A DNA stretch of 64,000 nucleotides from Glaucostegus cemiculus (lineage: Eukaryota), in assembly GCA_976551045.1 (NCBI GenBank), contig CDPCPM010000744.1:12462001-12526000 (forward strand), given 5' to 3'. The first letter of the stretch is position 1. Each line of letters begins with the position of its first letter. Below are positions 8,565-61,586 of the stretch, piece after piece. The notes below the pieces were generated by a model. It was given only the letters and a program-made list of their open reading frames with translations, did not search any database and was not told where the DNA came from. The position numbers and the translations under genes are program-made.

Positions 8565-8880
8565 AACAGACTGGGTGCAAACATATCAAGGAAGAAACAA
8601 TACGACACCTGCCATCCTCCTTTACTCAGTGCAATCATCGGCTCGATGTTAGAGGGTAAAGCTAACAAACTACTCTTAAGCAGTACACAACTGACTTCAG
8701 CGCCCGTGTGAGAAAACAGAGAGGGGGAACCATGCACTTGCGGCACTCTTCAAAGTGCTGCAGGGCTGGGGGTTTCAAAAGGGCCAGGGCCCGGTGCCAG
8801 CAAGGGCACAGATGCCTTAAACGACCAATGGTTCAAGTGTGCGATTGATGGGTGGGATGGAGCCAAACTTCGATTAAAAG
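8373..8880 (-). mobile_element. ERV 5' LTR (U3 end apparently truncated), containing a (CA)n tract
   Basis: Ends …TCTTACA just before the PBS; the far end abuts GPCR exon-1 homology with no TGTAA terminus. Confidence 0.65.
8505..8560. repeat. (CA)n microsatellite
   Basis: Direct reading. Confidence 0.98.
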
Positions 8881-9410
8881 TGGGGTTTGAGCAGGAAACT
8901 CAGGGACAGCTTTAGTTTTTCGGTAAAAGTCGATGATGTGATATTGGGTCAGGTAAAGAGAGACAATTTTCTTACCGACAAATAGGGAGAATTCACTTCA
9001 TTTATCGCCAAGAAAATGCAATCACCCAGAAAATGGAGTCGCATGGTAACAGGATTAATTATGATCACTGAACAAACAGATCAGGACCAGCCTTCTATAT
9101 ATAACCACAGAATGGTGGGATATTCATTCAGATCATTATTTTCGCAACATAACGTATCTCCAACTCATTTGGATAGCATCGAGGCTTTTAATCCAGAGAA
9201 TTTCTACAGTTTCTGTACAACCAGTGTGTTTCCAGCAGATCTTTTTTTTTTTTCAGATTTGCATCAGCTCAGCATTTTCCGTTTGCCTCCCAGTTTTACC
9301 AACCAGTGTGTGACTATTTAATTTCGATTATTTCATTCTAATTGAAGACACTAATTCGACGTCGATTTTGATTTCTGACGTCGTTCCGAGTTCATGGAGA
9401 AGATATTGAA
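8880..9410 (-). pseudogene. Orphan promoter and 5' half of exon 1 of a GPR139-like GPCR paralog
   Basis: Collinear with 25775-26295 (e.g. TTGAGCAGGAAACTCAGGGACAGCTTT vs TTGAGTAGGAAACTCAGAGCCAACTTT; TTTCAGATTTGCATCAGCTCAGCATTTTC vs TTTCAGATTTGCATCTGCTCAGCATTTTC). Encodes LSLSFLLK vs LALSFLLK, then breaks into the ERV LTR. Confidence 0.85.
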
Positions 9411-11519
9411 GAGGGCAAGAAGTTGTAAGCTTGGCTGGTTAATTAACCATTGCTTAAGATATTGGGATCTCTACGGTGTTACACTGCAATTAGGCTGATT
9501 TGTTTGATACACCAGATCTCACATTCAATAAGACACATCAGATTGTTACTGCGATTAAAACAACTAAAAATATGAGGGAATTAAGTTCTTTTCATTTGTG
9601 CATCTGGTATCATGGTTCAAGCCGCTTGGATCAGGTGGTAAGAAAATATGGTGACACGGTGATCATTGTCAGACCAACCATTCAGTACGGGAGATTGCTT
9701 CAATATAACAAATTGAAACACAGAGCGAGAGTCTGAAAAGTCCCACGAAACACAAAGGAGTCATGAGTTGCATTGCTTATCAATAGCTGCAGGCTTGAAT
9801 TTGGATCATGCTGTAGGTTCCAGCCCGTCTCAACGCACTTCAGCAAGTGGACAGTCTCGACGCATGCAGCTATCTGCATTCACACAACAGCTTTGACAAG
9901 TGATGAGAATCAGGTTCACGCTGCATTACCTGACAGTGTGATGTGGGCACTGGGAAACATCCCGCATTCATCAGCTCCTGTCAAAAAGAATAAAATATAT
10001 AGCTAACATTACAAACATGTTTAATAATTTATTTTACATAGTTTAAAGAATGATCTTGCACTACAAGTAAATTCTAACCATTGAAGTAACTTCAATAAAC
10101 CAGACAAACACTTACGTTTCCCCCACTCCTGAGACGCGGAGCCATCCCAGCTCCTGATAATTGTTTTTTGTTATATGTAATTGATGTGGAACCAATGTGC
10201 AAAGACGAAGTTGTCAAACAAGGGCTTAAAATGAGTGGGAATTGTCGATTAGGGAAAGGATGACGGACACGAGAAGCCCACAGACCCGAAACATCAGATC
10301 GTTCCAATCTTCCCGAGCAACAACACAATGGTTTTCTGGGAACCTTCCGGACGACGCAATTTGAACAGCTACCTATTGGTTACTGAGAAAGAATGTCCCC
10401 TAGTTCTGGGGTGAAATGCAGAGAGCTAATGATCATCGTACGAAGGCCCGAAGCAAATCACTTATTGCCATCGTGAACTCAAAAGCACTGAACCTTTCCT
10501 TTGGAGTCTCTAATTGTGATATTGGATTTGTTTGCTCTCATGTTGTCCGGGTCATGGGTAACCTACAGTATTTGCTGCTCACTTGTTGACATCAAAAACA
10601 AAAAGAACTACACACAGGAAACACAGAAACTAAAGATGCTGGAATCTGGCACAAAATCACCAAGTGCTGGAGGAAGGCGTGCCAGGCGGTATGTGTGGAG
10701 AGAAATAGACATTCTATGTTTGGGTCCAGGTTCTTCACCTGAACTGAAATATAGAGCGGGGAGAGCAAGGGTCATGTGGTGATGTGAAGGGCCGGGTCAG
10801 AAACTGGAAGTGGAAAGGTGGACCCCGGTAATTAGGAGCTGGAGGAGGGAAGCCTGGAAATAACAACAAAGGCTGGGAACTGACAGATGGAGACAACGAA
10901 GTCTGCAGATAATAGAATCTGATGGGAAGGGAAGACGAAACATTGTACCAAATAAGGGAGGTGGGGAGGCCAGATGAGAACGGGGTGGATCGAATTGACC
11001 AGTGGGAGGAGTGTGTGGCTGATGGACAGATGGAGTGAGTGGAGGAGGGGAAAGCATGTAAGTGATCATAGCTGGGAGCAGTGTGTAGGAGGAACTGCGA
11101 AGAAGGAAGTAATCTCTTCCACATAACATCATCCAGACCACAACGATTTGTCGAGATTCTCCCTCATTATTGAACCTCAAACTGAACATCACACTTCAGA
11201 ACAAAACGACCCGAGATGTGCACCCTCGTGCTCGCATATAAACTGCTCAGAGTGAATTCAGAAGGTGAAATCTTCATACGACAAATTGTTGACAAATTGT
11301 CCCAGTAAAGATGAAGGAGTAATGTGCTTGCTGCTCGATAATATGCTTCCATATTATCGAGCAGCAAGCACATTCATTTACATGAATGTAAATATTACAT
11401 ATTATGAATGTAATATTTACTTTCATAAAATGTAAAAATAAATTTTATGTGTGTATTCAAACTGGTTGGTCCATCTATGAAGCCCAGGTCACAAGGAATA
11501 TCCTCAGTGGCTCTATTAG

Positions 11520-11875
11520 GCTGGTGCGGTGGCGCAGCTGGTGCAACCGCTGCAACATAGCGCCCGAGACCCGGGTTCAACCCTGACCTCCGGTGCTATC
11601 TGTGTGGAGTTTGCATTTTCTACCTGAGACTGAGTGTGTTTCCTTCCAGTGCTCCGGTTTCCTTCCACATCCCAATGCCATGCGGGTCGGTTGTTAAAAT
11701 GACCTCAGTGAATGATGAGTGCGAAGATCTGAAGGGATGTTTTGAGAATGTTTGGGAGGGGGGAGAAGAGATGGGATAGAGATGTAGGATCCGTGTAAAT
11801 GGGTGGATGGTGTCGGCAAAGACTTGGTGGGATGAAGGGCCTGTTTCCCTACTGCAAGACTCTCTGATTCTATCA
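11520..11875 (+). mobile_element. V-SINE (HE1-like)
   Basis: Box A GGTGGCGCAGCTGG, box B GGTTCAACCC, V-domain TGTGTGGAGTTTGCATTTTCT…GCTCCGGTTTCCTTCCACA, CR1-like tail. Confidence 0.85.
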
Positions 11876-11944
11876 GCAAGAGAAATCGTCACCTGCAAAT
11901 GAAGTGTGGGGCCTGGGTGATTATTCACTCTGCTGTCCCATTCT

Positions 11945-14649: not shown

Positions 14650-15545
14650 TCACTGAAATGATTTAATGGCCAAAGTCAGGGGATATTTCAGTCCGTTCTT
14701 CAGTTCCTCTCTGAACTTGCTCTGGGTCACTGCACAAATGAAAGTGTTGGTGCAGCAGCCCAGCAGCTGCAACATTAGTCCGATTTCTGGAACAAACGTG
14801 GGCAAGGGAACGGGGTAGCCCAGATAATCCAGTCGCCGCAATATCGAGCAAACCACGAACACCACCCATAAGATGATGAAATTGCCCGATATTACGAAGA
14901 GTAGCACCATAGACGTTCTTCGATTTTCCATTTCTTGGTCACAGGAAGCCGCCCCTGTGTTGCCCCTCTGCAATCTAATGCGGGCTCTGCTGGCCACAAG
15001 AATGTGCCTGACCGTCAATGCATTGAGCAAGAGGATCAGGCAAAAGGGGACAAATGGGGTGAGAATGTAATGCGCTAATTCAACCAGGGTCCAGGCCAGC
15101 GAACGGGATACAGCAAATGACACGCGACAAAACCAGGGATTGTTCAATAACCAATACTGACCAGTATACAGGAAATACAGGAAGATATTCTTCAGACAGC
15201 TCACCAGTGTCACTGTTCCCAGAACAACATCTGCCGTTCTTACGGTGCAATACTTTAATTTCAGTTTCTGACAACAGATGACCACAAATCGATCGAAGGT
15301 GAAAGTGACTGTGAACCAGACCGAACAGTCTGTGGCTGCATAAAGCAGGATGGCGTGGATATTGCAGATAGGAATCAGTCTAACAACATTAAACTGGGTG
15401 CGATAAACAATGGGAATCTGTCTTAATATCAGATCTATAATCACGACCAGTAGGTCCGCTGCTGCGATAGCGACCAGTTAACGAGTGACACACTTGGAAA
15501 GTCCACATCTTCCCCGACACAGGATCACAATCGTCACCACATTGT
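14650..15545 (-). pseudogene. GPR139/GPR142-like GPCR pseudogene, exon 2 (end of TM1 to TM7); one premature TAA at 15480-15478
   Basis: Acceptor ttcccctgttctttgttctgctgagaacAG, phase 1. Reads NVVTIVILCRGRCGLSKCVTR*LVAIAAADLL…DCSVWFTVTFTFDRFVVICCQKLK…LLGCCTNTFICAVTQSKFREEL; the frame is otherwise open. Confidence 0.92.
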
Positions 15546-15609
15546 CTGTTCTCAGCAGAACAAAGAACAGGGGAAAATGATCAAACAATGGTCACAAAAA
15601 TACCAGATT

Positions 15610-18400
15610 CTACCAAGACAATATGCGTAAGAGAACTGCACCTTAATGCCCGTAGTGTTCAAAAGAATGTCGGTGAACTCCTGGTGCAAATCAGTACAGA
15701 TAGGTATGATTTAATGGCCATTACAGAAACTTTGTTGCAGGGTGGAGATGAGTGGGAATTAAATATCCAAGGGTATCAGGGAAAACGGAAGAATAGACAC
15801 GAAGGTAAGGGCGGTGCATGCGATCAGGACGATAGTGAGAGATGATATGAGAAGCGGAGTTTTTGGTCCATCTGGTAGACATTAGCAATAGTAAAGGGAA
15901 AACAATCACTGGTTGTTGTTACCCACAAATCGCCGAATAATAACATTAGTGGCACAGGCAATAAACTAAGAAATATTTGATGCAAATATTTGAATGGGAG
16001 AATCAAATCGGTCGAGGCACTCTTGTGGAGTAATTCATGGTATGCATCCCTGATAGCTTTCTAGAACAGCATGTTAGTCAACCTGCAAGGGAAAACGTTG
16101 TCTTCGATCTGGTGCTCTGCAATGAAGCAGGTAAAGTTAACGATCTCCTCTTTAGGGATCCTTTTGTATAGTGATCCAAGTATGGTTGAATTTCTCATAC
16201 AAAAGGAGGGTGCAATAGTTAGATCCAAATCCAGTGCTGTGCCGAAACAAGGGAGACTACAACGGGATGAGAGAGGAGTTGGCGATGGTAGACTGGAAAC
16301 ATGGACTACATTGTGTGACAGTGGAGGTCTTTCAAATAAATTTTCCACAGTGCCCAATAAAAGTATATTCCAGTTAAAAGCAAGAACAGTAATGGTGGGG
16401 AGAACAGGCCTTGCAAAGCTAAGGAACTAAAAGAATGTTAGAAGCTAAAAGCTCATGCACATAAAGTCGCCAAATGTAGTGGAAATTGGAAGATTGTGAA
16501 AACTTTAAAAAGCAACAAAGAATCACCAAGCAAGCAATAAGGAAAGGGAAGATCGATTATGAAAGCAAACTCGGAGAAACTCTGAAAACGGATAGTGAAT
16601 GTTTTTATTATATTACAGAGCGAAAAGTTTGACTAACGTGAACGTAGTTCACTTGAAAGATAAGAAAGGGGCATTAATATTGAATAATGTGGAAATGGTC
16701 AAGGCCTTGCACGAATATTTTGTCAGTCTTCACGGTGGAGGACACATCTAACATGGTAAGGAGAAATGTTATGGACGCGATGGGGGGTGAGGACCTCGAT
16801 ACATTCTGTCACTAACGAGGTAGTGATGAGCAGTCTAATCGGTCTAAAAATAGACAAGTTCCCTGGTCCCGATGTGATGTATTCCAGGGTACTGAAAGAA
16901 ATGCGGAAGTTGCAGTAGAGGCGTTTATCATAGTTTACCAGAGTCTCTGGATTCTGGACAGCTCCCGGCAGATTGGAAGACAGCGATTGTCAGGCCATTG
17001 TTTCGAAAAGGATGTTGACTAAAGGCAGCAACTGTAGACCAGTCAGCTTAATGTCTGTAGTCAGGAAAATCATTAAATATATTATAAAGGAAGAAATAAA
17101 GGGAAATATGGATATAATTGGGTTCGTTGAGCAGATGCAGCATGAATTCTGGAAAAGCAGGTCCTGTTTGAGAAACTTACTGGAGTTCTTTGAAGATATA
17201 ATCAGTGTAATGGATAAGGGGGTGGAACAGGTGGATTTTGTATACTTACCTTTCCAGAAGGAATTCAGTAAGGTGCAGCATAGAAGACTTGTCAATAAGA
17301 TAAGGATACATGGAGTTGGGTTTAATATGGACGGAGGATTGGTTAACCAATGAAAGGTAGAGTTGCGATAAACGTGTGTTTCTCCAGTTGGCAATCAGAG
17401 GTGAGCCGAGGGCAATATGGTCGGGGCTGGGCCCGCAATACACAATATACATTAAAAGTTTTGAAAAAGGGACCGAGTGTTGTCTGCCAAATTTTCTGAT
17501 GAAACTAAATTGAGTTGAATAGCAAATAGTGCAGAGGATGCGGAGAGTCCACAGAGAGGTATAGTTAGCTTAAGTGACAGGGCAAGGGTCTGCCAGATGG
17601 AGGACAATGTTGGTTAATGCGAGGTCATCCACTTTGGAAGGTAAAATAGAGGATTACATCATTTAAATGATGAAAGATTGCAGCATGCTATTGTGCAGAT
17701 GGACTTGGGAGTGCTTGTACATGAATCGCAAAAGGTTTGTTTGCAGGTGAAACAAGTTTTCAAGAAAGCAAATTGAGTGTTGATCTTCATTGCTAGAGGG
17801 ATTTAATTTAAGAGCAGTAAGGTTATCCCGCAACTGTACAGGGTGCAAGGGGGGCTGCACCTGAATACCGCATGCTGTTCTGTTCTCCGTATTTGAGGAA
17901 AGATATACTGGCTTTGGAGGTGTTGCTGAGCAGATTCATCAAGTTGATTCTGGAGATAAGGGGTTTGTCCTATGAGGAATGATTGAGCTGCCTCGTATTA
18001 TACTCGCTGGAATTCGGAAGAATGAGAAGGATTCCTACAGAAACGTATAAAATAAAGAAAGGGAGAGATAAGAGAGTCGGGAGGGTGGTTTCCAATGGTA
18101 GGTGAGACAAGAACTCGGAAACATAGCCTCAAGATTCGGGGAAATATATTTAGGACGGAACTGAGGAGAACCTGCTTTTCACAGATGGTGAATCTGTGGA
18201 ATTCTCCATCCAGCCAAGCAGTAGAGTCCATGCTATTAAATGTATTTAATTTAGATAGGTTTCTGCATTGCCGGGGAATTAAGGGTTATGAGAGAAAGAC
18301 AAGTCGGTGGATCAGAGTCCACAGACAGATCAGCCATGATGTTGATTAGCAGAGCAGGTTCGACGGGCCAGCTGGGCTCATTCTCTTATTTCTTGTGCTC
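15610..18400 (+). mobile_element. Degraded CR1 LINE ORF2 (endonuclease plus RT) in the GPCR intron
   Basis: LNARS…DLMAITET, RPVSLMSVVRKI, RSCLRNLLEFFE, TRTRKHSLKIRG; many stops and frameshifts. Confidence 0.92.
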
Positions 18401-20974
18401 TTGGACAACACAATTCGGCCCTTCTACCCAGCATGTACGTCAAGTACCCATCTCTACGCAGCGCATTTACCAGCACTTAGTCCGTGGTATTCTATATCTT
18501 GGCGATTCTATTACTCACCCAGATGCCTCTTGAAAGTTGTGAGAATCTCTGTATCCACATCCCGTCAAGCACTGTGTTCATATTCAAAGCACCATCTCAG
18601 TGAAAAAATATCCTTCCGATCTCCTCTAAAGCTCTTACTCCTCACCTAAAACCCATGTCCGCCAGACTTGGAAGGCCACAGGCTGGGGAAAGATTTCTTT
18701 CTGTCTCAACCGTCTGTGCCTGCCATAATGTCACACATTATCGTCAGGTTCCTTCAGTCTCACCTGAGATTCTGTAGGACTCCCTCTCATTCTTCAGAAT
18801 GAGAGTTAGTTCCCTCATTCTGGTAAACAAACCCAGACTACATGTGATTCTGGAATCTGCCATCTTAATCTCCAATTCTGATGAAGGAACTCGGTCCAAA
18901 ACCTCGACTGTTCATTTCCCTCCATAGATGCTGCCTGACCTGCTGAGTTCCTCCAAAATATTGTGTGCGTTGTCCAGACTGTCCAGTCTCCCTTCATAAC
19001 TGAAACGCCCGTCCCCTGCCCCCGGCGACATCCTGCTGAATCTCTTCTGCGCCTTTTCTAATGCAATCACCTTCTTGCTATCGTGTGGCGACCAGACATC
19101 CACACAGTTTTCCAACTCTCTCCAAACCTATGCTTATAACAGGCGAACATGACCTTCTGCATTTATGTTCTCTGCCCTGGCTAATGAAGGCAAGCATTCA
19201 GAACGCAGGTTCTCCCCTCTATAGACATGTCTTTATCATGTAAATTCTTTGCAATAGACAACAGAATGGCTTCTGAACTCCATGTAATTCCTTGCTGGAT
19301 TACGTTTTCATGAAATAATCATTCTCAGGTTATACGTTTGGTGAAGGTAATGTTTGCACGTTACATTTCAAAGTTCGCAAATTAGGCTCTTTGTTTGCAA
19401 AACGACAGCAATAAGAATTACTTTAAAAATGGAAGGATGTTAATGTTCCCAAAGTAAAATAGAATTGTAAATAACATGGCCGTGGACTGCTTGACTGTTA
19501 TCGCGTGATCCTGATTTGCGAATTTTGGGTGACCACGGAGTTTCTGTCAAAGGACGAAAGAAAGCGTGTGACTGCCAGCAAAGAGGCACCAACATCTATG
19601 CCGACGGTCAAAATGTCAAGTAACTTTCCGTTCAAGGACGAATTCCAAACTTAATGAAAAACAATGAATGGGTGGCAATATTTTAAACTGTATTAAGAAC
19701 TTTAAGTGATTTAAGCAGTAAAAACTCAAGTAATTCAAAATAATAAAGCAAACTCAAGTGACTAAAATAATATTTTCCCTATTTTCCCTTACAACTACCT
19801 TTCACCATTCATGAGTATGAGTTTGTTTTCAAATATTCGGAAAATGTTAACTGCTGGTACGTTTTAGTGCCACGGAATACAGCGGGACTACAGATGCATC
19901 TTTGGGGCGTTAGACGTCAAAGTCCAGCTGCGGACCACTGTCGGATAGGTTTCAGATTTTGGAATTGTGCAGTCCCCCCACACCAGAGACCATGAGATAT
20001 AGGAACAGAAACAGGCCATTCTGTCCATAGTCTGCTCCACCATTCAATCATGGTTGATTTTGTTAGCCCATTCCCCCGCTGTCTTCCTGCAACCCTTAAC
20101 CCCATTGCCAATGAAGAACCTCTCTCTCTGCCTTAAGTAAATCCAATAACCTGGCCTCCACAGCCCTCTGTGGCAACGAATTATGCCGATTCATCAATCT
20201 CTGGTTGACGAAATTCCTGCTCATCTCTGGTGCAATGGGACGTCCCTATATTCTGCGTCTGTGCCCTCTGATCCTAGATCTTAAAGGAACCAATTCAGGT
20301 TCCTTGCGTTTTCATGCTTCCAGCTCCGTCATAATTTAATCGTATTCCAGTGGCACCAGTTCAATATTTGCAATTCATATAATGGATCAAACACAACTTT
20401 GTGTGTGCATATCGCCTCAATCTTATAAGCTTACAATGTATCACCATCAGAATCCATGTAGAGAAGTCCAGTTCTCAGACACGGGTCGACGTGATCAATT
20501 CAAATAATTGCCGGAAATAACCAGATGAAAATAAGGCGCCACGCGGGCAGCTTAAAACGCAGAGAGAAGCCTTCGGACGCCATTACTCTGACCTCGGAGG
20601 ACTTCGGAGGACTTCAGAAACTGCTAAGTATTTTTCTCTATTTTTTTATTAAAGTGTAAGTGTAGAGTAAGATTTTTAACAAGGGTGTAAGATACTAGTG
20701 TTAGATAGTATTTAGGAGTTATTTTTAGTAGGGTTATATACGCTTTAAGGGGTTGAGTGAGGGCTGGACTGCGCAGGCGCCACGCGGGCAGCTTAAAAAG
20801 CAACCAGCTTCTCGAGCGGGCAGCGGAGTGAAGGGGGAGCAGAGTGTTCGGGCTTTGGCACAAGGGACTTTGGCTTGAATGGGCGAGGCAGGGGAGTTAC
20901 TGGTAAGTAAAGGTAAGGCTTACCTGTTTAAGTTACTTAGTTGGACAAACCAGGTTTAAGGGGAACTAGTTAAG

Positions 20975-21936
20975 ATGGAGGGCATGGTGCCGTGCTGCAG
21001 CTGCTTGATGTGGGAGAACGTGGACCCCGTTGAGGTTCACGTTGACCACTTCTGCAGTAAGTGTGTGAGGCTGGAGGAACTTCGGCTCAAAATTGATGAG
21101 CTAGAGTCACAGCTTCAAACATTGCAGAGCATCAGGGAGGGAGAGAGTTATGTAGATGCGGCACATCAGGAGACGGTTACCCCACTTAGAGCAGATACTT
21201 CAGGAGGCCAGGTAGTAGATAGCTGGGTGACTGTCAGGGGAGGGAAAAGGAAGGGGGAAACAAATAGGCAGACAGTGCAGAGAACCCCGGAGGCTGTTCC
21301 CCTCAAAAGCAGGTTTTCAACTTTGGAAACTGTGGAGGGGGACAGCCTGCAGGGACCAAGCACTAGTACCTAGGTCACTGGCACTAGGACCAGTACTACT
21401 GCTCAGATGGGGAAGAAGGCAAAGAGAAATGCAGTGGTGATAGGGCACTCGATAGTCAGGGAAACAGATAGGAGATTCTGTGGAAGTGAACATGAATCCC
21501 GGATGGTATGTTGCCTCCCAGGTGCCAGGGTCCAGGATATTACTGATCGGGTTCACAGGATTCTCGAGCGGGAGGGAGAGCAGCCAGAAGTCATGGTTCA
21601 TGTTGGTACCAATGACATAGGTAGAAAGAGGGATGAGGTCCTGCAAAGGGAGTTTATGGAGCTCGGCAGAAAGCTGAAGACCAGGACCTCAAGGGTAGTA
21701 ATCTCAGGATTACTACCGGTGCCACGTGATAGGAAAGGTAGGAACAAGGCGAGGTGGCAATTAAATACGTGGCTGAGAAAGTGGTGCAGGGTAGAAGGTT
21801 TTAGATTTTTGGATAACTGGGACCTCTTCTGGGGAAGGTGGGACCTGTACAGAGAGGACGAGTTACACTCCAACCAGAGGGTGCAGATATCCTTGCAGCA
21901 CGGTATGCTTGGTTGGTTCATGAGAATTTAAACTAG
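20975..21936 (+). pseudogene. CR1 ORF1 (Cys-rich zinc finger/leucine zipper plus SGNH esterase), one nonsense codon and a late frameshift
   Basis: CCSCLMW…CSKCVRLEELRLKIDELE; TAG 21371-21373 then same frame VVIGHSIVR, VHVGTND, DELH. Confidence 0.9.
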
Positions 21937-22012
21937 TTGGTGAGGGGGATGGGAACCAGGAGGGCAGGTCAGAGGATTAGGGGTTACAGAAAAGGCAGAC
22001 CTAACAGACAGA

Positions 22013-25000
22013 GTGTCTCTGAGGAAGGAGAAGCAGAGTACAGGCCATAATAGTAAAAAGGTGTATAAATTAATCAGGCAAGACGAGGGAAACCAGCTTA
22101 GATTAAAGGAGGAGGTATGCGGGAACAAGTCGACGTGCAGTGAAGATGGTAAGAAGGACAGGCGGGTGGAAGGTAAGGATAATTTAGAGATCAATAGAAG
22201 TTCATCAATATCTGTAGTTGATGCTGTTCTAAAAGTACTGTATTTTAATGCACGTAGCATTAGGAATAAGGTCGATGACACAGTGGCACAGCTACAAGCT
22301 AAAAAACATGATATCGTGGCAATCACCGAATCATGGCTTACTGACGGATGTGATTGGGAACTGAACATCCAAGGGTATACGGTGTGTAAGAAGGATAGGA
22401 GGGTAGGCAGAGGGTGTGGTGTAGCCCTGATGGTCAGTAATAATATAAAATCGATAGAAAGGAAGGACATAGGGGTGGAAGAAGTGGAATCCTTATGGGT
22501 GGAGTTAAGAAACAGCAAGGGTAAAAGGATGCTAATTGCAGTTATATATAGACCCCCTAACAGCAGCCGGGAGGAGGACTATAGGATACAGTTAGAAATA
22601 GAAAAGGCGTGTCAAAAGGGCAATGTGAAGATAATTATGGGGGACTTCAACCTGAAGGTAGATTGGGAAAATCAGCGAGGAGGTGGATCGCAAGAAACTG
22701 AGTTTGTAGAATGTCTACAGGATGGCTTTTTGGAGCAACTTGTAGATGAACCCACCAGGGTTCAGCCATTTTGGATTGGGTACTGTGCAATGAACCAGAG
22801 CTGATTATGGAGCTAAAAGTAATGGAACCATTAGGAACCAGTGATCACAATATGATTGAGTTTGGAGTCAAAGTTGAAAAGGAGAGACTCATAACTTGTG
22901 CACATATATGGCAATGGAACAAGGGAAACTACAGCAGTATGAGAGAGGAACTGTCTCAAATCGATTGGAAGATTAAGCTAGCAGGTGGGACGGTGGAGCA
23001 GAAATGGATAGAGTTTTTACAAGAAATAAGGAAGGTGCAGGATTGGTATGTTCCAAGAAAAAAGAAAGCTCTGAATGGAAAAAAGGCACATATATGGGTA
23101 ACGAGAGAGGTTAAGGCTAAGATAAGAGCAAAAGGGATGGCCTACAAGGTAGCAAAAATAAGTGGGGAAACTGAGGATTGGGAAACATTTAAAAACCTGC
23201 AGAAAGAAGCTAAGAAGGTCATTAGGAAAGAAAAGATGAATTACGAAAGGAAATTGGCAGATAACATTCAAACAGATACTAAAAGTTTTTTTAAAAATAT
23301 ATGAGGTGTAAAAGAGAGACACGGGTTGATATAGGACCAATTGAAAATGGTGTGGGAGAGATTATAATAGAAGATACAGAGATGGCAGAGGAACTAAATA
23401 AGTATTTTGCATTGGTCTTCACTGTGGAAGATACCAGCAATATACCAGATAGACAGGGGTTCCAGGGGATTGAACTGAGTACAGTTGAGATTACTAGGGA
23501 GAAGGTGCTAAGGAAGCTAAGTGGATTAAAGACAGATAAGTCACCCGGACCGGATGAGGTGCACCCTCGGTTTCTGAAGGAGGTGGCTTCAGAGATTGTA
23601 GAGGCATTAGTGATTATTTTCCAGGAGTCAGTGGACTCCGGCATGGTTCCGCAGGACTGGAGAGTAGCGAATGTAGTTCCACTGTATAAGAAAGGTGGGA
23701 GGCAGCATAAAGGTAATTACAGACCAATTAGTTTGACGTCAGTAGTGGGAAAGATACTGGAATCGATCCTCAGGGATGAGGTTACGGAATACCTGGTGTT
23801 TCAAGACAGGATAGGTCCAAGCCAGCATGGTTTCATAAAGGGAAGATCTTGCCTGACCAACCTATTGGAGTTTTTTGAGGAAATCTCAGGTAGGGTGGAT
23901 AAGGGAGAGGCAGTGGATGTTGTGTATTTAGACTTTCAAAAGGCCTTCGACAAGGTGCCGCATCAGAGGTTGATTAATAAGATGAGTACGCATGGAAATA
24001 CAGGAAGGATATTAAAATGGGTCGAGCATTGGCTGGTAGGCTGAAAGCAACGGGTAGGAATAAAAGGATCCTGTTCTGGATGGCGACCGGTTACTAGTGG
24101 TGTCCCGCAAGGGTCGGTGTTGGGCCCGCTACTTTTCACTTTATATATTAATGATTTGGATGATGGAGTAAATGGTTTTGTAGCTAAGTTTGTGGATGAC
24201 ACCAAGATTGGCGGTGGATCAGGGAGTATAGAAGAGGCAGGAAGGCTGCAGAGAGACTTGGATAGGTTAGGTGAATGGGCAAAGAAATGGCAGATGAAAT
24301 TCAATGTTGACAAATGTGCTGTAGTGCACTTTGGCAAAAGAAATGAACGGGCAGATTATTATCTAGATGGGGAGAAAATTGGAAGTACGGAAGTACAAAG
24401 GGACTTGGGGGTACTCGTGCAGGACACCCTAAAAGTCAACCACCAGGTCGGATCGGCGATAAAGAAAGCGAATGCTATGTTGGCGTTCATTTCGCGAGGT
24501 ATAGTGTATAGAAGTAGGGAAGTGATGATGAGGCTCTATGGAGCACTGGTACGTCCTCATTTGGAATACTGTGTGCTGTTTTGGGCCCCACGCCTTAGAA
24601 GGGATGTGCTGATGTTGGAGAGGGTTCAGAGGAGGTTTACAAGGATGATTCCCGGTATGAAAGGGCTTACCTATGATGAGCGTTTATCGGCTCTTGGACT
24701 GTGCTCATTGGAGTACAGAAGAATGAGGGGGGACCTCATAGAACTGTTTAGGATGTTGAAAGGAATGGATAGAGTAGACTTGGATAGGCTGTTTCCCTTG
24801 GTTGGTGAGTCCAAGACTAGAGGGCACAGACTTAGAATCAGAGGGAATCAGTTTAAAACAGAGATGAGGAGAAATTACTTTAGTCAGAGGGTGGTGGAAT
24901 TGTGGAATTCTCTGCCACATACAACTGTAGAGGCTCAGTCAGTGGGGGCATTTAAAGGGGAGTTGGATAGGTACCTAATTAATCAAGGTATCAAGGGATA

Positions 25001-25028
25001 TGGGGATAAGGCTGGAAATTGGAGATAG
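22013..25028 (+). pseudogene. CR1 ORF2 (APE endonuclease plus reverse transcriptase), two frameshifts and one stop
   Basis: YFNARS, AITESWL, GDFN, SDH; NYRPISLTS, LDFQKAFDKV, GVPQGSVLGP, FVDD. Frameshifts near 22760 and 23300; TGA at 24042-24044. Confidence 0.95.
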
Positions 25029-25703
25029 ATATGTTATTTTTTCTCTTCTCATGGAGCAGACTCGAAGGGCTGAATGGCCTACTTCTGCTCCCTTGTCTTG
25101 TGATCTTGTGAACATGAAAACAACAAGCGGCAGCTGAAACGCCTATTTATGACATTAACCAATGCCCTCTGGAACAAAGGAGATACCAAGCGAGTTATTT
25201 GACAAAGATTCACATCGTCACATTGGTCTGACGAAACGTCTGCGACCTGAAACATAACTGTCGCTCTGTCTACTGATGCCATGACCTATTGAGTGTTTTC
25301 ATGATTTTCTTTTTTACATCTGCCTTTTAGTCTCAAAATATTCAATGTCCTGAACAAATATCATGCAATCAGTATTTAGAGCAGAGGGAACCCGATAAAC
25401 GATAAGATCCCGTAACAGTTACACTAACACTGGAGACAGGAGGGAGATGAGGAGGTAGATGGAAACGGTAAATGATATCTGGAGTGGGATGCGGAGAAGG
25501 AGAGAACGAGGAGATGAGGGAAATGATAGGGGGAGAGGAACAGAGGACGGAGTGCGAAAAAGAGGGAAAAAGCTTCATATTTTCTTGTAAATATAATGCA
25601 TATGACATTGCAAAACACATATTCTTGAGGTATATTCACAGTTTCAGAATCACTTTCCGTTAACGTCAAAGAACTGAGGTGCCAGCTGGAGAGAGTGACT
25701 TAC

Positions 25704-25800
25704 CTGAGACGCCAACTGCAGCCAAGATGGGGTAATAAAATGTTTGTATATCATACAGCACAAGTAAAATCTTGAGCTTGAGTAGGAAACTCAGAGCCAA
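25704..25800 (-). pseudogene. GPR139/GPR142-like GPCR pseudogene, exon 1 (TTG at the initiator position)
   Basis: LALSFLLKLKILLVLYDIQTFYYPILAAVGVS-G|gtaagt. Phase 1 matches exon 2 at 15545. Its 97 nt equal the distance from the second ATG to the donor in the intact paralog. Confidence 0.88.
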
Positions 25801-25888
25801 CTTTTGTTTTCTTGTAACGATCGATGGTGTGATACTGCTTCACGTACCGGGGCAATTCTCTGACTGACACGAAGGGAAACTTCCCTTT

Positions 25889-25948
25889 ATTTATAGCCAA
25901 GAAAATCCAGTCAAGCAGTGAATGGAGTCCCATGGGAGCTGGATTAAC
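25889..25948 (-). promoter_or_regulatory. GPCR core promoter: TATAAAT, EBF/Olf-1 palindrome TCCCATGGGA, homeodomain core TAATCC
   Basis: TATAAAT 25895-25889; TCCCATGGGA 25928-25937; GGATTA 25941-25946. Confidence 0.6.
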
Positions 25949-28426
25949 TACGATCATTGAACAAACATTTCACGACCAACCTTGTGTTCTTAATTTTACA
26001 ACGGAGAGATTTCTATTCAGGTAATTCCTTCCAGAATCATTTTCACAATATCACATGGCTCCAACTGAATTGAATGACATCAAGGCTTGTAATTCCGAGA
26101 AATTCCACGGTTTCTGCCCGACCTGTGTGTTTTCAGAACTCTGCTTTTATTTCAGATTTGCATCTGCTCAGCATTTTCTATTTGCTTCACGCTTTTACCA
26201 ACGAATGTAACTATTCAATTTAGATGCATTCATTCCAATTGTCACCAATTTTAAGTCAATTATGATTGCTGACGTTGTTTCGAATTTCTGGAGAAAGGTC
26301 TGAAATCAACCACAGGAGAGAGAAGGTCATGTTTCCTGCAAGGATGCATCTTCAGATGTCCTGGAACAGAAAGCCTCGTCTCAAGGACAGATGCAGCAGA
26401 GATCGTGAAACTGGGCGAAAAGGATGACATCCTTACAAGAGACAGGATGGGAAGAGGTGATACTATTTTCTTAAATCAGGTATACATTCAGAAATAGAAT
26501 TACCTTCCCTGGTGTTTATCTGCACTGGAATTGACAGGATCTCGTCATCTCCTGTAACTGCCCCATTTGACAGTATATCTAATTCTCTCTTCTGCTACCG
26601 TGGCATTCCCTTTTACTGCTCAGCATTTAACAAGCTTAAATTGTTCGCTTCTTAAAACCAACAACAATATTTTGACACTGGGGGAATATGCGCTGAGAAT
26701 TTCCTTGTTGCATTGAAACCAAGAACCAGAAGTAGCTCAAACTGAGGGCTAAAAGTTACCATCTGTCCTCCAGTTCAAAGCAATTACGTTCCCCTATTCT
26801 AGGGAAACGGCACATGAGGTGAGAGTTATGTGGAGCTCCCACTGGATGGAATAGGTCACGAATAAGACTGGCCCTCACAGAAATGGGACTAACGCCGTTC
26901 CTGGTTACCTCCGAGGAGAATGAGGTGGCCGAACAATTACCAACTGCAGATCCAACCTGAAGGAAAACTTGACGGTGGGATCTGCGTAGCAAGGCCACAA
27001 ACAAGATGCAAAATGTCGGCACTGCATCTGCGGGGGACGTTCGTGTATTGAATCAGCAGAAGATAATAAATCTTACCTGCGCCCTTGTGTATTGTGAATA
27101 GCTCTGTACTCCAATAGAGAAAACAAACTCGCAGCACCAAGCCTGGCAATTCTTCTGTATAAATCTTGCAACAAGATTGACTCATTCCAGTGCAGTACCG
27201 TATTCACTCACTCCATCCAGGATTCCACCCTCATCTCAGCAATAGCTCTCCTCTTGGTACTCACAAAAGATGATCCGAGGGCAACTGCTCCTAATGAAAC
27301 AAATTTGAGCACCGGTTTTCTCAGCAGAAATAGATGGGTCTGCCGACGCCAAATGATCTTCACAACCTTGCATCCATTTTGGATATAAGTGACCAGGCAA
27401 GCCTAACAGAAGTCAAAGGTCCAATACTTTCTTGAAAGCAGCAAAGTCTTTAGTGTAAATTGGCCAACCTCTAGTTTAATGACCCACCAGGTCATGTCAG
27501 GCAGAAGCATCTGCTATTTTATTGGTCTTTGAACAGTAATTGAACAGAGGGACGTGTGACTGTGGATGCTGGAATGTGGAGCTACAAACAAAATGCTGCT
27601 TGAACTCAGCGGTTCTTTGTCTTTCTGTCTCTCTGTCTACCAATTTCCGCCAGTAATTTTACACATAGTGTGACTCGCATATGGGTATCACCCTCGGAAC
27701 ATGGAACCAGCTCTGCTGTGCCTTCTGGTTATCACATCCAGTTTCAATGACTCTTTTGAAGATTGATTACTGAGTGGCCAGTCATGTCAATAAGCGCACG
27801 TGAGATCGCTCTTGGACCATTATGAACAGTCTTAATACCCCCGAGTCATCTTTTGCGGATCCCAAGAGCAACTTTGGTCTAGTCCTGCAAGAGTCAGTGT
27901 CTCCTTCCTGTTCTATTCCATCAGGGGAAACCTTCCCAAACCTCCATTTCCACAGGCACATTGAGTAGAGAGGAGAGGGAAACATGGAGAGGAGGTAACA
28001 GGGGATTATGTGAAATGGGGCAGGAACGCGAGATGGCGAGAGCACATCAGCTTCCGTGCATATGCATAGGAGGAAAGAAGTTCCCGACTGGGTACACAAA
28101 TGATATTATCTATAGAAATGCATTCCTCCATTCCTCCCCTTGAGTTGTTAATTTCTATGGTTCGATGATTACCTGAACTACATCATTACAGTATCCCTTT
28201 TATCGTTTTGATGTTCACCACTTCGTCCAGTTATCATCTGCAAACATTGAAGTTTTACATTGTATTAAATCGTACACCCTTGTGGACGGAAGCAATAGTC
28301 CTAGCAGAAATCTTCGGGGGTCATTACCTTCCCCTCGGTCTGAGTTTGCTAATGTTCTTTCAAAAACAGGGAACTGGTATGTTGTTATACGTCTCAAAAC
28401 TTCCACATGTACAGTAAGTTCTGTTC

Positions 28427-42887: not shown

Positions 42888-43695
42888 TCAGAGTCTGACG
42901 GTCCAAAGAAGTAATGTGAAGGGAAACTTAATCACAATCCTCAGTTCGTCTGTGACATTTGACAGAGGCAGACCGTAAATAAACATGTTTGTGCAGGAAA
43001 TCAGGATTTCAAGCATGTCCCCGGCTGAAAAGGCCATAGATAGAGGGTAATGCCATCCTGGGTAAGTGTGTGAGTTGGCAAAAGTCGACTACATGAAGAC
43101 CACCACCTCCGTCAGCTCCAGGAGAATAAAACAGCCCGACACACAGAACAGTAAAATGAGAGACTTAATTCCACTGTCCATTTACGGGTCCTCCTATTTC
43201 CAGCTACTGATTGAGCGACGAACTTCCTGCGGAATCTGCTCGCCACCGGGAGAGATCTGACCGTCTCAAGCAATAACAAGGAATGGAAGCAGAGGGGTTA
43301 AAATGTTGTCAAGCTAATCGAATGCAACCATTCCGGGCAGGGAGTAATATTCTACCTTTTCAGTACATCCAACAAACACATAAAATTCATAAGATTCAGA
43401 CTCAGACCAAACACTGTTCCTATCACCATCCTGGCGGTTCTACCCGCGCAGTACCTGGTTTTAAAGTTCTGGCAACCAGACGAAGCAGTCTAAGGACGCA
43501 AACGTCATCACCTTCTGCAGGATGCATGGTTCAGTGTAAGGCATGAACGTGCAAACTCTAGTAAAAATGCTATGTCTCACCACGTTGAAAAAGACGGCCA
43601 GTAGATCTGCTGCGGCCATCGCCACGAGATAGTGAGTAATACACCGGGAGATCCGCACCTTCACTGCCCCAGAACGACTATCGCCACTGAACAAC
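42888..43695 (-). pseudogene. Heavily decayed GPR139/GPR142-like GPCR exon 2
   Basis: Acceptor tttccgcacAG; VAIVVLGQ*RCG/ISRCITHYLVAMAAADLL…SLDCFVW [DRF segment deleted] CQNFKTRYC…LTPLLPF…KSLILLFCVSGCFILL…SCTNMFIY…IKFPF…*; stops, frameshifts and deletions. Confidence 0.9.
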
Positions 43696-43807
43696 CTGTG
43701 CGGAAATGAACATAAATGTTTTCGAATCTGGTCATCAGGTTGGAATTGCTCTCGCTGTTTCTGTAAATGGCGCAGGTGTGTCCCATACATCGGATGGAAT
43801 AGACGTA

Positions 43808-54549: not shown

Positions 54550-55350
54550 ATCAGGTCAGATCAGATTAGTTTATTGTCACACACAGCAGGATGTAATGAA
54601 GTTCCTTGCACCCGTGATGCTCGCAGAGTAAACAATGTGCAGGATAATAATAAATACAACAATAAACACCACGACGATGACAAAACAACAGAATGGCGCA
54701 AAGATTGCAATGCAACCTGAAGCAGTGGAAGAAAGAAATGCGGAAGTGAAAATAACGGAATAACCCAGAGAAGCAGAGTTAAGAGTCCGAGAACGTGGCT
54801 GCACCACCGGGAAGGGAATGTGAAAGAGGTGATTGGCTCAGAGCTTTGATAGCAGTGGGGATGAAACTTCTCTTGTGTCTGGACGTCTGGGCCCTCGAGA
54901 TCCCGTGTCTTCTCCCAGAAGGGAGAAGAGACAAAAGGGAATGGCCAGGATGACAGGCACGCTTGGCGATATTGGCAGCCTTCCTGAAGCAACGCACAAT
55001 GAAGATGTACTGGATGGAAGGAAGTGACGAGCCCGTGACTGGTCAGTGTTTACTACCCTCCGCAGATTCTGTCGGCCCAGAGCAGAGCATTTTCCGTACT
55101 AAGCTGAGATACAAACTGTCAGGATATTCTCGATAACGCACCTGCAAACGTTCCAGACTATTCTCCTGGCCAACTTTCTCGCTTAAAAAAATTAACACAG
55201 TGATGTGCCTTCCTAGTCACCACATCAGTATGGAGGGTCCAGTTGAGTTTACTGGTGATATGGATGCCAAGGAACTTGAAGCGTTAACCATCTTGCCAGA
55301 AGTTCCGTTGCTGATCACAGCGAACATTGCACTTGCAATCCTAGATCTCC
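54550..55350 (-). mobile_element. Rex/Babar-type LINE 3' fragment
   Basis: RCFRKAANIAKRACHPGHSLLSLLPSGRR…KRSFIPTAIKAL; related to 62730-63440. Confidence 0.72.
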
Positions 55351-55389
55351 TCTACCATAACATTCCGCATGGCCGAGCCATTCACTGTA

Positions 55390-57800: not shown

Positions 57801-58702
57801 TTATTTCATCATGTGAGTAAGTGTGCTGAAGGGATATTTCACCCCTTTACTCAGCTGCTCCCTGAACTTCGTCTGGGTCGCGGCATAAATGAAAGTGTTG
57901 GTGCAGCAGCTGAGGAGCTGCAGCATAAACCCAAGTTCCGTCACGATGAGTGAAATTTCTCCTTTATCCTCTACGTGCAACAGGACAATTCGGGTGTGCA
58001 GCGTGGACACCAGGAAGGGAGACCACAGGAGGATGAAGTTCCCCGAGATCAAAAAGAGTAGAATGATGGATTTCCTTCTGCTCTTCGCTTCAGGGTCATT
58101 CTGGCTCTCCCCGCCGATTGGCCCTCGAAGTTTCTTGCGGATTCTAATGGTGACCAGAATGTGTCTGACGGTCAGTGCGTTGAGCACCAGAATGAGAATG
58201 AACGGGATACACGGGGTGAAGACATAATGGAGGAATTCAACGGCTGCCCAGACTGGGGAGAACATGACACTGAAGGTAATAACGCAGAACCAGGGCATTC
58301 TCTGAAGTGCGTATTTGTTTGTATACATGAAGTACCAGAACAAATTCTTCCCACTGAAAAAGACACTGACTGTCCAGATAACCACTGCCGCTGTTCTCTC
58401 GCTGCAGTGTTTGGTCTTCAGTTTCTGGCAACAAATGGCCACAAATCGGTCGAAGGTGAAAGCGACGGTGAACCAGACAGAACAGTCGGTGGCGGCGTAG
58501 AGGAGCACGGCGTGGATGTTGCACACAGGAATGTTCTGCACGAATTGAAAGGCTTTATAGAGGACAATAGGAATCTGCTTCAGGATCAGATCGAGGACAA
58601 TGACCAGCAGGTCCGCCGTCGCCATGGCCACCAGGTAACGCGTGACGCCCTTGGAGAGGCCGCATTTTCCTCGAGAAAAGATCAAAATGGTCAGCAGGTT
58701 CA
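57801..58702 (-). CDS. GPR139/GPR142-like class A GPCR, exon 2 (intact; spliced product 341 aa)
   Basis: Acceptor tttctctgctttcttggccctcgtAG, phase 1. VNLLTILIFSRGKCGLSKGVTRYLVAMATADLL; TM3 C…DCSVWFTVAFTFDRF; ECL2 WFC; TM6 FILLWSP; TM7 SCCTNTFIY; helix 8 KFREQL; TAA at 57803-57801. AATAAA on minus at 57682-57677 and 57628-57623. Confidence 0.93.
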
Positions 58703-61357
58703 CTACGAGGGCCAAGAAAGCAGAGAAACATTATACCTCAGTAAGGGAACAAAACTCAGCAATTTACAGCAAACATACCACCAAATGTCTCGGAATCTTT
58801 TCATGTCACTCCCCTTCTTCTCTGCACTGACCATTTCCCCTCTCCACTCTCAATCCTTCTTTCCCACCCGAAACTTCGACAATTCCTTTCCATCCATAGA
58901 TGCTGCTCGACCGGCTGACTTCTTCCAGCGGATTGTTTGCCGCTGCGGATTCCATCATTTACAGTCCTTTCTCTGTCCAATTTACGCTAACTCAACGAAA
59001 TATCAATACGTATTCATAGACAGATGCAGCACAGAAACAGGATATTCATTCACAGTGTCCTTGCTGAATGTCATGAACCAACTTACATTAAATCTTTAAT
59101 CCATTTAAATTCCCCACATTTCCACCAACTCTCCTGTATTAAACATACGGGGAGTAATTTACAATGGTCAAATAACTTTCCAAATGCGCAAGTCTTTTGG
59201 ATGAAACCAGAGCACGCGAGGGAGACGCTCCCTGTCACAGGGAGAGCGTTGAAACTTCAGACACATGAAGACACCGCCCAAGGTTGGTATTGACGTCATG
59301 CCGCTACTATTATCTTTAAGGTATGTCTGATACACGCCCACACCACAACGAGCCAACCCTTCACTGATTCGGCATCAGTACCGTGGATGCTCCTATGCCC
59401 CACATTCCCTCGATAGGAGCGGGTATGTGAGAAGGCTCAGAATAATGTCTTCAACCTGACAATATATAAGCCAACAGTCTCTTTGATTCCTCACTACACA
59501 CACTAAATTTGTGTCTCTCCGACTTCTCCCAAGCTGCTGAGAAAACAGTCCCTTCAAGATTGTCAGGGCGTTCATGGAAGAAATTTTGTTCTGGTTGATG
59601 GCGCCAGAAGGTGTGTTGGTGTCTCTATGACTCTGTGAGCCATCAAAATTCAGATATCTCCGACTCATCCAACTGTTGAAGTGTTGCCTCGTTCTTTATC
59701 AAAATAAATGCCTTGCTCTGTGCTTTATCCCGGAATCGTGACACTATCATTTGCTCTCAGAAAAGTCTTCATGCCTGAGATCTCTCATCGTTCTGAAGCA
59801 TACCACATATGATCTGCCGTTATCTACAGGACGGCCTTCTGTTGGTTACAGCCATGCAATTGTTCGCTGCCACATTACCTCTTCACACCGTTTCCACTGT
59901 AGAATCCGGCAGGTTCCTTCACTTTGCAGCTCTTCAGATCAATTAACAAGGACGGAACTTCAGAAATAAACCCCTTTGTTGAAGGCAGCCACCACCCGGC
60001 TCACAGCAGCTGCTGGTACAACAGTCGATCAAAAATCAATCTACAATCTTCAAGGTCCGCCCACACATTGGATCAGCACAGACCGGCCATTAAATTAACT
60101 GCAGAGGACTACAAAGAACAGTCAGAACTGATATCGAGTGACCTCAAACGTACAGACATACCCGAGTGATTTTCAGTGGACGCAGTTGACCGGTGTGCTG
60201 GTCTTTCAAAGTAGTGAAGAGATAAATTCCTCCGAAATCACAAGGCAGACTGGCGGACGATTCCTGAAATTGAGCGGATGTTGTAAATTGCGACGTGATC
60301 GCCGGTTTAAGGTGATCTTTGTCAGGGCGGTGTTAGTCTGGATTAGTTGCGTTCCGGCAGCAGATTGTTTGATTCTCTAGCTTCTTGCATCTGCGATACC
60401 TTGAGTGCCGGAATTTGTCAGACCTGTCACGTCTGTGAGTGGCAACGTGAAGAAGTGAATGCGTTCGTCCTCTGCATCCACACATTTCCGTCCACCAACA
60501 CCCCCACCACTCCCCACACACACGCCACCACCACCTTAACTGGAATTTAATCTCTTGGAATGATTTCTCACCATGTAATTCCGATCACCCATTTTATCCT
60601 GAAGACATGATGCATCATTCAAGCCGTGTGTTTATTTGTTTTTCCATTCGCGTCCTTTGGAATCGCCACCTCTCCCCTTGAACCAGGGCTAGACAGGCGC
60701 TTTCCTAGACTCTCCCGGTTGTAAACTCAGAGAAGTAGGTCCTGGCTGGGTCTGTAAAGGACTTTCGACCTTTCCCGACGACATTTTCTTGTACTGACAA
60801 CCTCGGTCAAAACTTAATGTCCAAATAGTGAGAGAAAAGCTGAGCTGCAGATTGCAGGTGTGGAACCGTCAGCTGATAGTGTAAGCTGCGCACACTGTGA
60901 TCTCTTCGGTAAAAGAAATAGTCATCGACTTATAACGCACGGAATCAGGCCATTCGGCCCAACCCGTCCGTTCCGACCAAGTTGTTCAACTGATCTCGAT
61001 ATATTTCCTTGCATTTGGCCCGTAGCCCTTTAAATATTTCCTATCCATGTACCTTTCCAAGTGTCTTTTAGACAACGTAATGGACCACCTCTGCAATGCC
61101 CTCCAGCAGCTCGGTCTGCACATTCACCACACTCGGTGTGAAATCCCTCAGGAATCAGTCAGAGCAATGGATTTTCACGAACATCGACAACGGAATATAC
61201 TGGACTCAATGTTCATTAAATGTGGCCATGTCGAAATAACCATAATTGTTATGAATGCAGGACACGATTATCTACGATTAAAAGGCCCCGTGAATACATT
61301 GTAGTTAGGAACATATCAATAAAATACCAGATTTAACAACCAGAGGTAGAGTCTCAC

Positions 61358-61481
61358 CAGTAACGCCAATAACTGCGAGGGTGGGGTAATAAATCTCTTG
61401 CATATCTATAATGATTTGAAGTATCAAATTCTCCACTGAATGTCCTCCATCCATCTTTTCAGATGCCTCGTGTTTTCTCAT
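61358..61481 (-). CDS. GPR139/GPR142-like class A GPCR, exon 1
   Basis: ATG MRKHEASEKMDGGHSVENLILQIIIDMQEIYYPTLAVIGVT-G|gtgaga, 124 nt, phase 1, joins exon 2 in frame across a 2655-bp GT-AG intron. A second ATG at 61454 has strong context AAGATGG. Confidence 0.9.
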
Positions 61482-61523
61482 GGAGACTGCGGGTATCTGC
61501 GAATGAGGCTGATGTGAATGTAC

Positions 61524-61586
61524 TTATATAAGTCTGGAGAAATCTCTGCTGGCATCACTAGTGTATTAGGAGTCTTGCATTAATTG
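61524..61586 (-). promoter_or_regulatory. TATA box (TATATAA) and upstream ATTAATTG homeodomain-like site of the intact GPCR
   Basis: TATATAA 61530-61524, 43 nt upstream of the first ATG; GCATTAATTG 61577-61586. Confidence 0.65.

Follow-up and report, generated by a model that had tools for sequence, protein, structure and literature searches.

Gene copies at the locus

A stretch of 64,000 nucleotides from Glaucostegus cemiculus (GenBank assembly GCA_976551045.1, contig CDPCPM010000744.1, positions 12,462,001 to 12,526,000 of the forward strand; hereafter the window, with position 1 as its first letter) was analysed for copies of a G protein-coupled receptor (GPCR) family that resembles GPR139. 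Four family copies were recovered, all on the minus strand: A is intact, B is a pseudogene, C retains a decayed exon 2 and D is a truncated promoter with the start of exon 1. This agrees with a preliminary description of the same DNA, in which four co-oriented paralogues (intact, pseudogene, decayed exon 2, orphan promoter and exon 1) had been reported. Given the E-values, the likeness among A to D is not due to chance. The features of the four copies are as follows.

61525..61530, minus strand: putative TATA-like hexamer upstream of gene A, from the sequence
61358..61481, minus strand: gene A exon 1, coding for the N-terminus and the first half of transmembrane helix (TM) 1; from the GT-AG structure and tblastn matches of family N-termini at 61454-61329
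58703..61357, minus strand: gene A intron, GT-AG, phase 1, at the codon before N1.50; from splice signals
57801..58702, minus strand: gene A exon 2, intact, second half of TM1 to the C-terminus; from the 7tm_1 match and a seven-helix model with a predicted local distance difference test score (pLDDT) of 91
25704..26295, minus strand: gene B promoter region and exon 1 (exon 1 about 25800-25704, donor after 25704)
15546..25703, minus strand: gene B intron, phase 1, 10.2 kb; position and phase identical to gene A
14650..15545, minus strand: gene B exon 2, interrupted by a single premature TAA at 15480-15478; from translation and alignment to A
about 42888..43700, minus strand: copy C, a decayed exon 2 whose subfamily is distant; from alignments to gene A (E 3e-15) and to a relative in skate (E 4e-41)
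8887..9401, minus strand: copy D, duplicate of the gene B promoter and first codons (72.7% identical over 527 columns, E 2e-79)

The reading frame of gene A is free of stops across both exons. Two candidate start codons, ATG at 61481 or the ATG at 61454 with the stronger context, give a protein of 341 or 332 amino acids, respectively, and the intron carries two short high-copy repeats. Gene B, with TATAAA at about 25895-25890 in its promoter region, is 58% identical to A over 292 amino acids. The phase-1 intron in TM1 that had been described for the two two-exon copies was found at the same position and phase in both, and the replacement of DRY by DRF was likewise seen in A and B, copy C being without the DRF region. 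The premature stop of B was also confirmed, but B is not the "single-stop pseudogene" it had been called: the stop is accompanied by the loss of the start codon, with TTG at 25800-25798 where shark relatives carry Met and no in-frame ATG, so that B has two lesions rather than one.

Copy C contains seven internal stops in its main frame and has lost the region from the end of TM3 to TM4; its exon 1 was searched for in the window and not found. Copy D carries CTG at the Met position (about 8912) and breaks off after about nine codons, and the 3' half of its exon 1 was searched for in the window and not found. At the Met site, B and D thus carry TTG and CTG, both near-cognate codons, although the frame of B is otherwise nearly intact and the two promoters are 27% diverged. 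Either independent loss or non-AUG initiation in the B/D subfamily may account for these codons.

Receptor class and nearest relatives

Gene A encodes a class A receptor, as evident from PF00001 (7tm_1), the sole Pfam match of exon 2, at 78.7 bits against a cut-off of 30.5. The structural model of exon 2 (pLDDT 91) contains seven helices and helix 8, with a TM-score of about 0.7 to many class A structures, and the class A anchors N1.50, D2.50, R3.50, P5.50 and W6.48 are conserved. At position 4.50, where nearly all class A receptors have Trp, gene A has Trp as well, whereas most family members have Gly.

Human GPR139 was the closest solved receptor, with 43.5 bits in a single-sequence phmmer search of PDB chains only. 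A profile search against the PDB chains gave 108 bits for GPR139, followed by 76 bits for the neurotensin receptor, and Foldseek placed the GPR139 structure 7vug at rank 1 with about 22% identity in the fold alignment. Shared with GPR139 and GPR142 are the loss of the NPxxY proline, Asn at 5.58 and an aromatic sub-pocket; the GPR139 gene, as in the family, consists of two exons with an intron in TM1. The motifs NTFIY, NTFIC and NMFIY, which had been put forward as replacing NPxxY, are indeed present, but the change is not specific to the chondrichthyan family, since the NPxxY proline is absent from human GPR139 in the alignment as well. Unlike GPR139, which is single-copy, the family comprises hundreds of copies, has DRF instead of DRY, a Cys-rich intracellular loop (ICL) 1 and ICL2, and a cysteine pair between C3.25 and extracellular loop (ECL) 2 (70 and 71 of 74 rows), and is devoid of the polar pocket residues E108, R244 and N271.

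The closest proteins outside the chondrichthyans belong to two other vertebrate clades, the amphibian/sturgeon P0235 clade at 122 bits and the coelacanth-type P0244 clade at 110 bits. Because these are much closer than GPR139, and given the many copies per genome, orthology of gene A to GPR139 was rejected. The P0235 gene occurs once per species in 20 amphibian rows, Xenopus included, and in one sturgeon row. Sharks, bony fishes, coelacanth, amphibians, turtles and squamates are represented in the P0244 clade (best 120 of 145 matches), with no mammal or bird among the named rows of those 120. Both clades show one cluster per species in the rows listed and are apparently single-copy; true GPR139 and GPR142 were not among the matches listed (best 120 of 145 in the P0244 search and 25 in the P0235 search). 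The P0235 and P0244 genes are two conserved orphan receptors that resemble GPR139, occur in non-mammalian vertebrates and are concealed by the name "probable GPR139"; they may correspond to the GPR139/142 subtypes GPR210A/B, named in coelacanth, gar and fishes in the available part of PMC6504862, whose coverage does not extend to sharks. The amphibian P0235 clade resembles the expanded family in FTFDR, the ICL2 cysteines and the DPE..RR.SI motif, whereas both clades differ from it by near-invariant pockets; in the amphibian P0235 gene, the pocket is 96% conserved and N replaces D2.50. Since sharks retain their own single P0244 copy, the chondrichthyan expansion is a separate lineage from P0244.

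No family-level homology was found to the chemosensory receptors OR, TAAR, V1R, V2R and T2R, with 7tm_1 as the only Pfam match of gene A and TAAR chains at 28 and 24 bits. The general organisation is shared with odorant receptors (OR), TAAR, V1R/ORA, V2R/OlfC and FPR/MRGPR, namely clustered multigene arrangement, pseudogenes, a short N-terminus, a conserved cytoplasmic face and a variable outer face; in contrast to OR, TAAR, V1R, V2R, FPR and MRGPR, the chondrichthyan family has a coding intron. Comparable expansions are known from invertebrate class A receptors, where in the lineage-specific expansions of Lophotrochozoa a peptide-receptor-like gene gave rise to a tandem candidate chemosensory repertoire (PMC11886862, in part), and from the FMRFamide-like receptors of Lymnaea and the candidate chemoreceptors of Aplysia (excerpts of PMC11589774 and PMC2700072). 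The chondrichthyan case differs in being independent and in having arisen in a jawed vertebrate lineage.

Family size and phylogeny

A word-index search at 90% clustering yielded 2548 proteins at E<=0.001 among 3513 candidates. The best 120 of these 2548 were all from elasmobranchs, and 118 were named "GPR139". Among these 120 are 56 clusters from Heptranchias (159 member sequences), 32 from Heterodontus (59) and 24 from Pristiophorus (105); these numbers are lower bounds for the nearest subfamily only, and the members may include isoforms or sequences of other species. A full scan at 50% clustering returned 113 representatives at E<=1e-30. The family-branch members that were looked up were all chondrichthyan (20/20, including Callorhinchus, with one judged by its skate cluster member). 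The proposal of a lineage-expanded family that is not orthologous to GPR139 is borne out by this large chondrichthyan set and by the low GPR139 score given above, and public chondrichthyan annotations contain many copies rather than the mere handful genome-wide that the preliminary description had named as the contrary outcome. Opsin, capa or vasopressin-receptor labels on some members were rejected, as these proteins fall inside the family tree. The ESM Atlas also holds clusters of the family, some with Srw or Srx matches on a minority of members.

Independently of annotation, reads of the DNA run X15, from a related organism, reached a depth of about 373 on TM2-ICL2 and about 50 on the variable portion of exon 2, compared with 2-15 in intron bins free of repeats and 1.6-2.4 on the 3' flank. 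As the flank is less conserved across species, the depth ratio points only roughly to a very high copy number and does not amount to a count. At 57968-58301, within the variable exon 2 of gene A, the approximately 50-fold X15 coverage carried fixed differences in nearly all reads, which suggests that A-like copies underwent a recent burst of multiplication in the organism from which X15 derives.

Phylogenetic placement was based on two quick trees built without GPR139 and GPR142, from which partial and fused matches had been excluded. The family, P0235 and P0244 together formed one branch with support of 99-100 against unnamed outgroups. The family and the amphibian/sturgeon clade were joined at 90 in the 68-row tree, and the order among the three clades was unresolved in the 32-row tree.

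Distribution of conserved and variable positions

Across 74 family rows, ICL1, inner TM3-ICL2, inner TM6 and the inner TM7-helix 8 motifs were near-fixed, and an entropy of 2.5-3.9 bits was reached in outer TM2, TM3, TM5, TM6 and TM7 and in all loops. The boundary thus runs between the inner and the outer membrane half, and not, as had been claimed, between a conserved TM2/TM3 and a variable TM6-7. Five cytoplasmic cysteines in ICL1 and ICL2 (P0001 positions 13, 18, 90, 91 and 99) are conserved in 59-73 of 71-74 rows; they could form a palmitoylation cluster or a metal site on the signalling face.

For comparison of the ligand-facing side with the inner half, 26 pocket positions were picked by generic numbering from helix anchors. 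Pairwise identity of pocket and inner positions was 0.36 and 0.69 in the family (ratio 0.52; 73 rows), 0.96 and 0.78 in the amphibian/sturgeon clade (ratio 1.22; 21 rows), and 0.77 and 0.68 in the P0244 clade (ratio 1.12; 53 rows), the latter being a fair control because its inner identity is the same as that of the family. A diversified ligand-facing side, as initially proposed, is therefore upheld family-wide by a ratio of 0.52 against 1.22 and 1.12. In the A/B subfamily, the variation is found in the loops instead, in ECL2 (0.47) and ECL3 (0.37), together with positions 6.55, 6.58 and 7.35 (114 rows, after 6 of 120 matches had been dropped as partial or fused). Replacements between gene A and the sawfish orthologue fall at 25 of 112 outer but only 4 of 124 inner positions (Fisher p 6e-6). 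The ratio of nonsynonymous to synonymous substitution rates (dN/dS) between A and B was about 0.25 overall, 0.14 for the inner half and 0.10 for the pocket, as measured on one codon pair in which outer dS is saturated.

Ligand pocket

Pocket residues were numbered by hand from the helix anchors, with TM5 counted from its proline and not from the gapped columns of HMMER. GPR139 binds Trp/Phe between F109, H187 and W241 on one side and the polar N271, R244 and E108 on the other (PMC7318219 and PMC12775434, each in part). In gene A, the former correspond to Y, H and W for F109, H187 and W241, so that the aromatic sub-pocket is kept; the polar sub-pocket is replaced, with L, F and F for E108, R244 and N271. 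The same holds for the family at large, where among 160 sequences an acid at 3.32 was found in none, R or K at 6.51 in five and N at 7.39 in two. The claim of amino-acid (Trp/Phe) sensing as in GPR139 is thus not supported, because the polar residues that bind the amino acid are lost.

D or E at position 3.37 was present in 152 of the 160 family sequences. K or R at 6.51 was invariable in the relatives (21/21 amphibian/sturgeon and 53/53 P0244 sequences), and the amphibian clade combines K6.51 with N7.39 in 21/21. From the counts at 6.51 and 3.37, the expansion was accompanied by the loss of an ancestral basic contact and the gain of a deep acid.

In protostomes, the sister group of GPR139/142 consists of peptide receptors with amidated aromatic peptides as ligands (PMC8557429, in part); GPR139 itself has dynorphin as a ligand and signals through Gq/11 (PMC12287315, in part). 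By analogy with these, we infer as the most economical solution a cationic or amidated peptide-like ligand, which would have a deep anchor and variable parts contacted by the loops.

Cluster history and surrounding DNA

Gene A groups with single batoid orthologues at a support of 99 in the quick trees, and its best matches are 84% (sawfish), 77% (stingray) and 69% (electric ray) identical, among the best 120 of 2548. Gene B is 75% identical to a Heptranchias gene, against the 58% it shares with gene A, and the best match of copy C is a deep-branching skate gene. It follows that A, B and C are old subfamilies gathered in one cluster; a recent local tandem origin of the three was rejected, as each is closer to genes of other species. 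Judged from the sequence, only B and D form a local duplicate pair. Of the birth-and-death tandem cluster proposed at the outset, gene death is retained, with three of the four copies broken, but the recent local array is not, except for the B/D pair.

A non-coding block of 4.3 kb is doubled in the window (1-4259 versus 28024-32679, 72-86% identity) and has no Pfam match above the cut-off. Since the copy at 28024-32679 sits 1.7 kb upstream of the gene B promoter, the block at 1-4259 may lie upstream of a fifth paralogue just beyond the left edge of the window. Two further blocks of 640 bp (54498-55128 and 62674-63303) are 68% similar, one of them lying 1.2 kb upstream of gene A; they are either a repeat or a relic of another upstream region.

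The spacers between the copies are filled with debris of long interspersed nuclear elements (LINEs) and long terminal repeat (LTR) elements. A near full-length CR1-type LINE with an esterase-type first open reading frame (ORF1) at about 20960-25114 (plus strand) lies inside the gene B intron, opposite in orientation to B, and CR1-type LINE sequence also occurs at 46000-50800 (minus strand). Ty3/Gypsy pol remnants (RNase H, integrase, SH3) were located at 39392-41491 (plus strand). The GC-rich (57%) region at about 5500-8200 (minus strand) resembles a decayed LTR-retroelement or provirus, with protease-like and reverse-transcriptase-start-like motifs recognised by eye and no Pfam matches.

Functional interpretation

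On sequence grounds, we consider it an even chance that the family constitutes a chemosensory repertoire of externally exposed cells, diverse in its ligands and probably sensing peptides. One ancestral gene, likely co-orthologous to the one-copy amphibian/sturgeon gene, would have multiplied before the chimaera-elasmobranch split. Each subfamily would then have fixed a deep anchoring pocket while vestibule and loops kept changing; for A/B, the predicted anchor is the acidic-aromatic set D2.57, H3.28, D3.37, E5.39, H5.42, W6.48 and E7.36. A fixed anchor below a variable vestibule would fit peptides or amine-bearing ligands that share an anchoring end and vary in the remainder. Through the invariant ICL1/ICL2/TM6 face, all members would engage a single G protein, for which GPR139 suggests Gq/11 or Gi/o, so that many receptors with different outer faces could feed one shared signalling pathway. 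Chemosensory cells exposed to the outside, in the nose, taste buds, gill or skin, are the predicted site of expression. The olfactory repertoires known from sharks are small, V2Rs excepted (PMC10116579 and PMC6368271, each in part).

Several observations weigh against such a chemosensory repertoire. In the A/B subfamily, the nearest and largest one, the pocket is fairly conserved, with pocket and inner identities of 0.77 and 0.86 (ratio 0.90), and all 26 pocket sites are identical between gene A and the sawfish orthologue; this suggests that pocket diversity in A/B is below an odorant-receptor-like expectation. No dN/dS ratio above 1 was measurable for the A/B pair, and with the low overall dN/dS and the saturated outer dS, the loop variability may reflect relaxed constraint. 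Support for family monophyly was moderate (Shimodaira-Hasegawa-like approximate likelihood ratio test values of 89 with 68 rows and 72 with 32 rows). The catshark nose is reported to be made up of microvillous V2R-type neurons (PMC10116579, in part) and is likewise described as V2R-based in part of PMC6368271, which speaks mildly against the nose as the site, although the abstracts of this work do not extend to the present family; the top 50 olfactory-library genes of the catshark atlas include no GPCR in the available portion of PMC11979771; the latter argument is weak, since V2Rs are likewise absent from that list.

The more far-reaching proposition, that chondrichthyans derived their main chemosensory repertoire from another gene than did the remaining vertebrates, namely from a GPR139-related peptide receptor now present in hundreds of copies and outnumbering OR, TAAR, V1R and V2R together, and that these copies constitute a new vertebrate chemoreceptor family, is put forward tentatively and appears rather doubtful.

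Among the alternatives, a surveillance function at immune or barrier sites ranks first, although we regard it as unlikely. The receptors would act like FPR or MRGPR in leukocytes, mast-like cells or skin neurons, where they would detect microbial, parasite or damage peptides. Hypervariability centred on the loops over a conserved anchor fits peptide pattern sensing, and FPR/MRGPR clusters typically show tandem expansion with pseudogenes. Cartilaginous fishes are, moreover, reported to be without MAS1 and its relatives in the accessible part of PMC8455134, leaving that role open. Yet the nearest characterised relatives are neural (GPR139; PMC12287315, in part), and no immune gene was seen among the neighbours within the 64-kb window.

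Copy-number drift in a repeat-rich genome, by which a one-ligand GPR139-like gene would have been amplified with mobile DNA into redundant copies with loops under relaxed constraint, is improbable. Three dead copies out of four, the LINE and LTR debris in the spacers and the conserved deep pocket of the A/B subfamily are in line with it, as are the few RNA reads on exon 2 in another species: in RNA runs X18-X20 (related organism, tissue not given), the depth on TM2-ICL2 was 3-38, about equal in both orientations, corresponding to 0.016-0.057 relative to the intronic repeat versus 0.17 in DNA, and no exon 1-exon 2 splice joint was among the joints listed (15 of 20). Drift is contradicted by the 1:1 orthologues of gene A across sawfish, stingray and electric ray, the low dN/dS of the inner face, the persistence of the family from chimaera to rays, and a pocket that differs sharply between subfamilies and is near-invariant in the single-copy relatives.

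A somewhat slighter probability still is assigned to a reproductive role, in which receptors of sperm, gonad or oviducal gland would recognise conspecific peptides in chemotaxis, sperm storage or mating signals, on the model of the related sex-peptide/MIP receptors of invertebrates. Chondrichthyans generally show internal fertilisation and store sperm, and fast-changing outer loops would suit species-specific ligands. MIP-type receptors are placed in the sister clade of GPR139/142 (PMC8557429, in part); hundreds of copies, however, would far exceed known reproductive receptor sets. Sensing of free L-Trp/L-Phe in gut or nose is highly improbable, for although gene A keeps the aromatic sub-pocket and has GPR139 as top solved match by sequence and fold, the polar sub-pocket is L, F and F in A and its residues occur in only 0, 5 and 2 of 160 family members, whereas the amphibian clade has kept K6.51 and N7.39 throughout.

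Significance

A published description of the expansion was not found in the literature searched, and subscription papers and supplements may hold one. The family is unmentioned in the main texts of PMC11979771, PMC8455134, PMC10620051 and PMC12294341, and in the supplements covered of PMC10115646 (3 files), PMC10529500 (1 file) and PMC8455134 (12 of 24 files). The genes themselves are already in public annotations under the automatic name "probable GPR139". What is new is a lineage-specific class A expansion from a root that was not known to have produced one in vertebrates.

Sharks and rays have been described as GPCR-poor (PMC8455134, in part) and as having few olfactory receptors (PMC10116579, in part). 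With hundreds of class A receptors in a family so far hidden, the GPCR-poor view is overturned, whatever the role of the family. If the role is immune, the family would be an independent counterpart of FPR/MRGPR surveillance. If it is sensory, it would be a new vertebrate chemoreceptor family, and the paradox of the small repertoires would become testable with the existing catshark and skate tissue atlases. A main repertoire derived from a GPR139-related gene would, if true, explain the keen smell of sharks despite their tiny known repertoires. The single-copy amphibian/sturgeon relative, present in Xenopus, is an ancestor-like gene that is tractable and could help to identify the original ligand.

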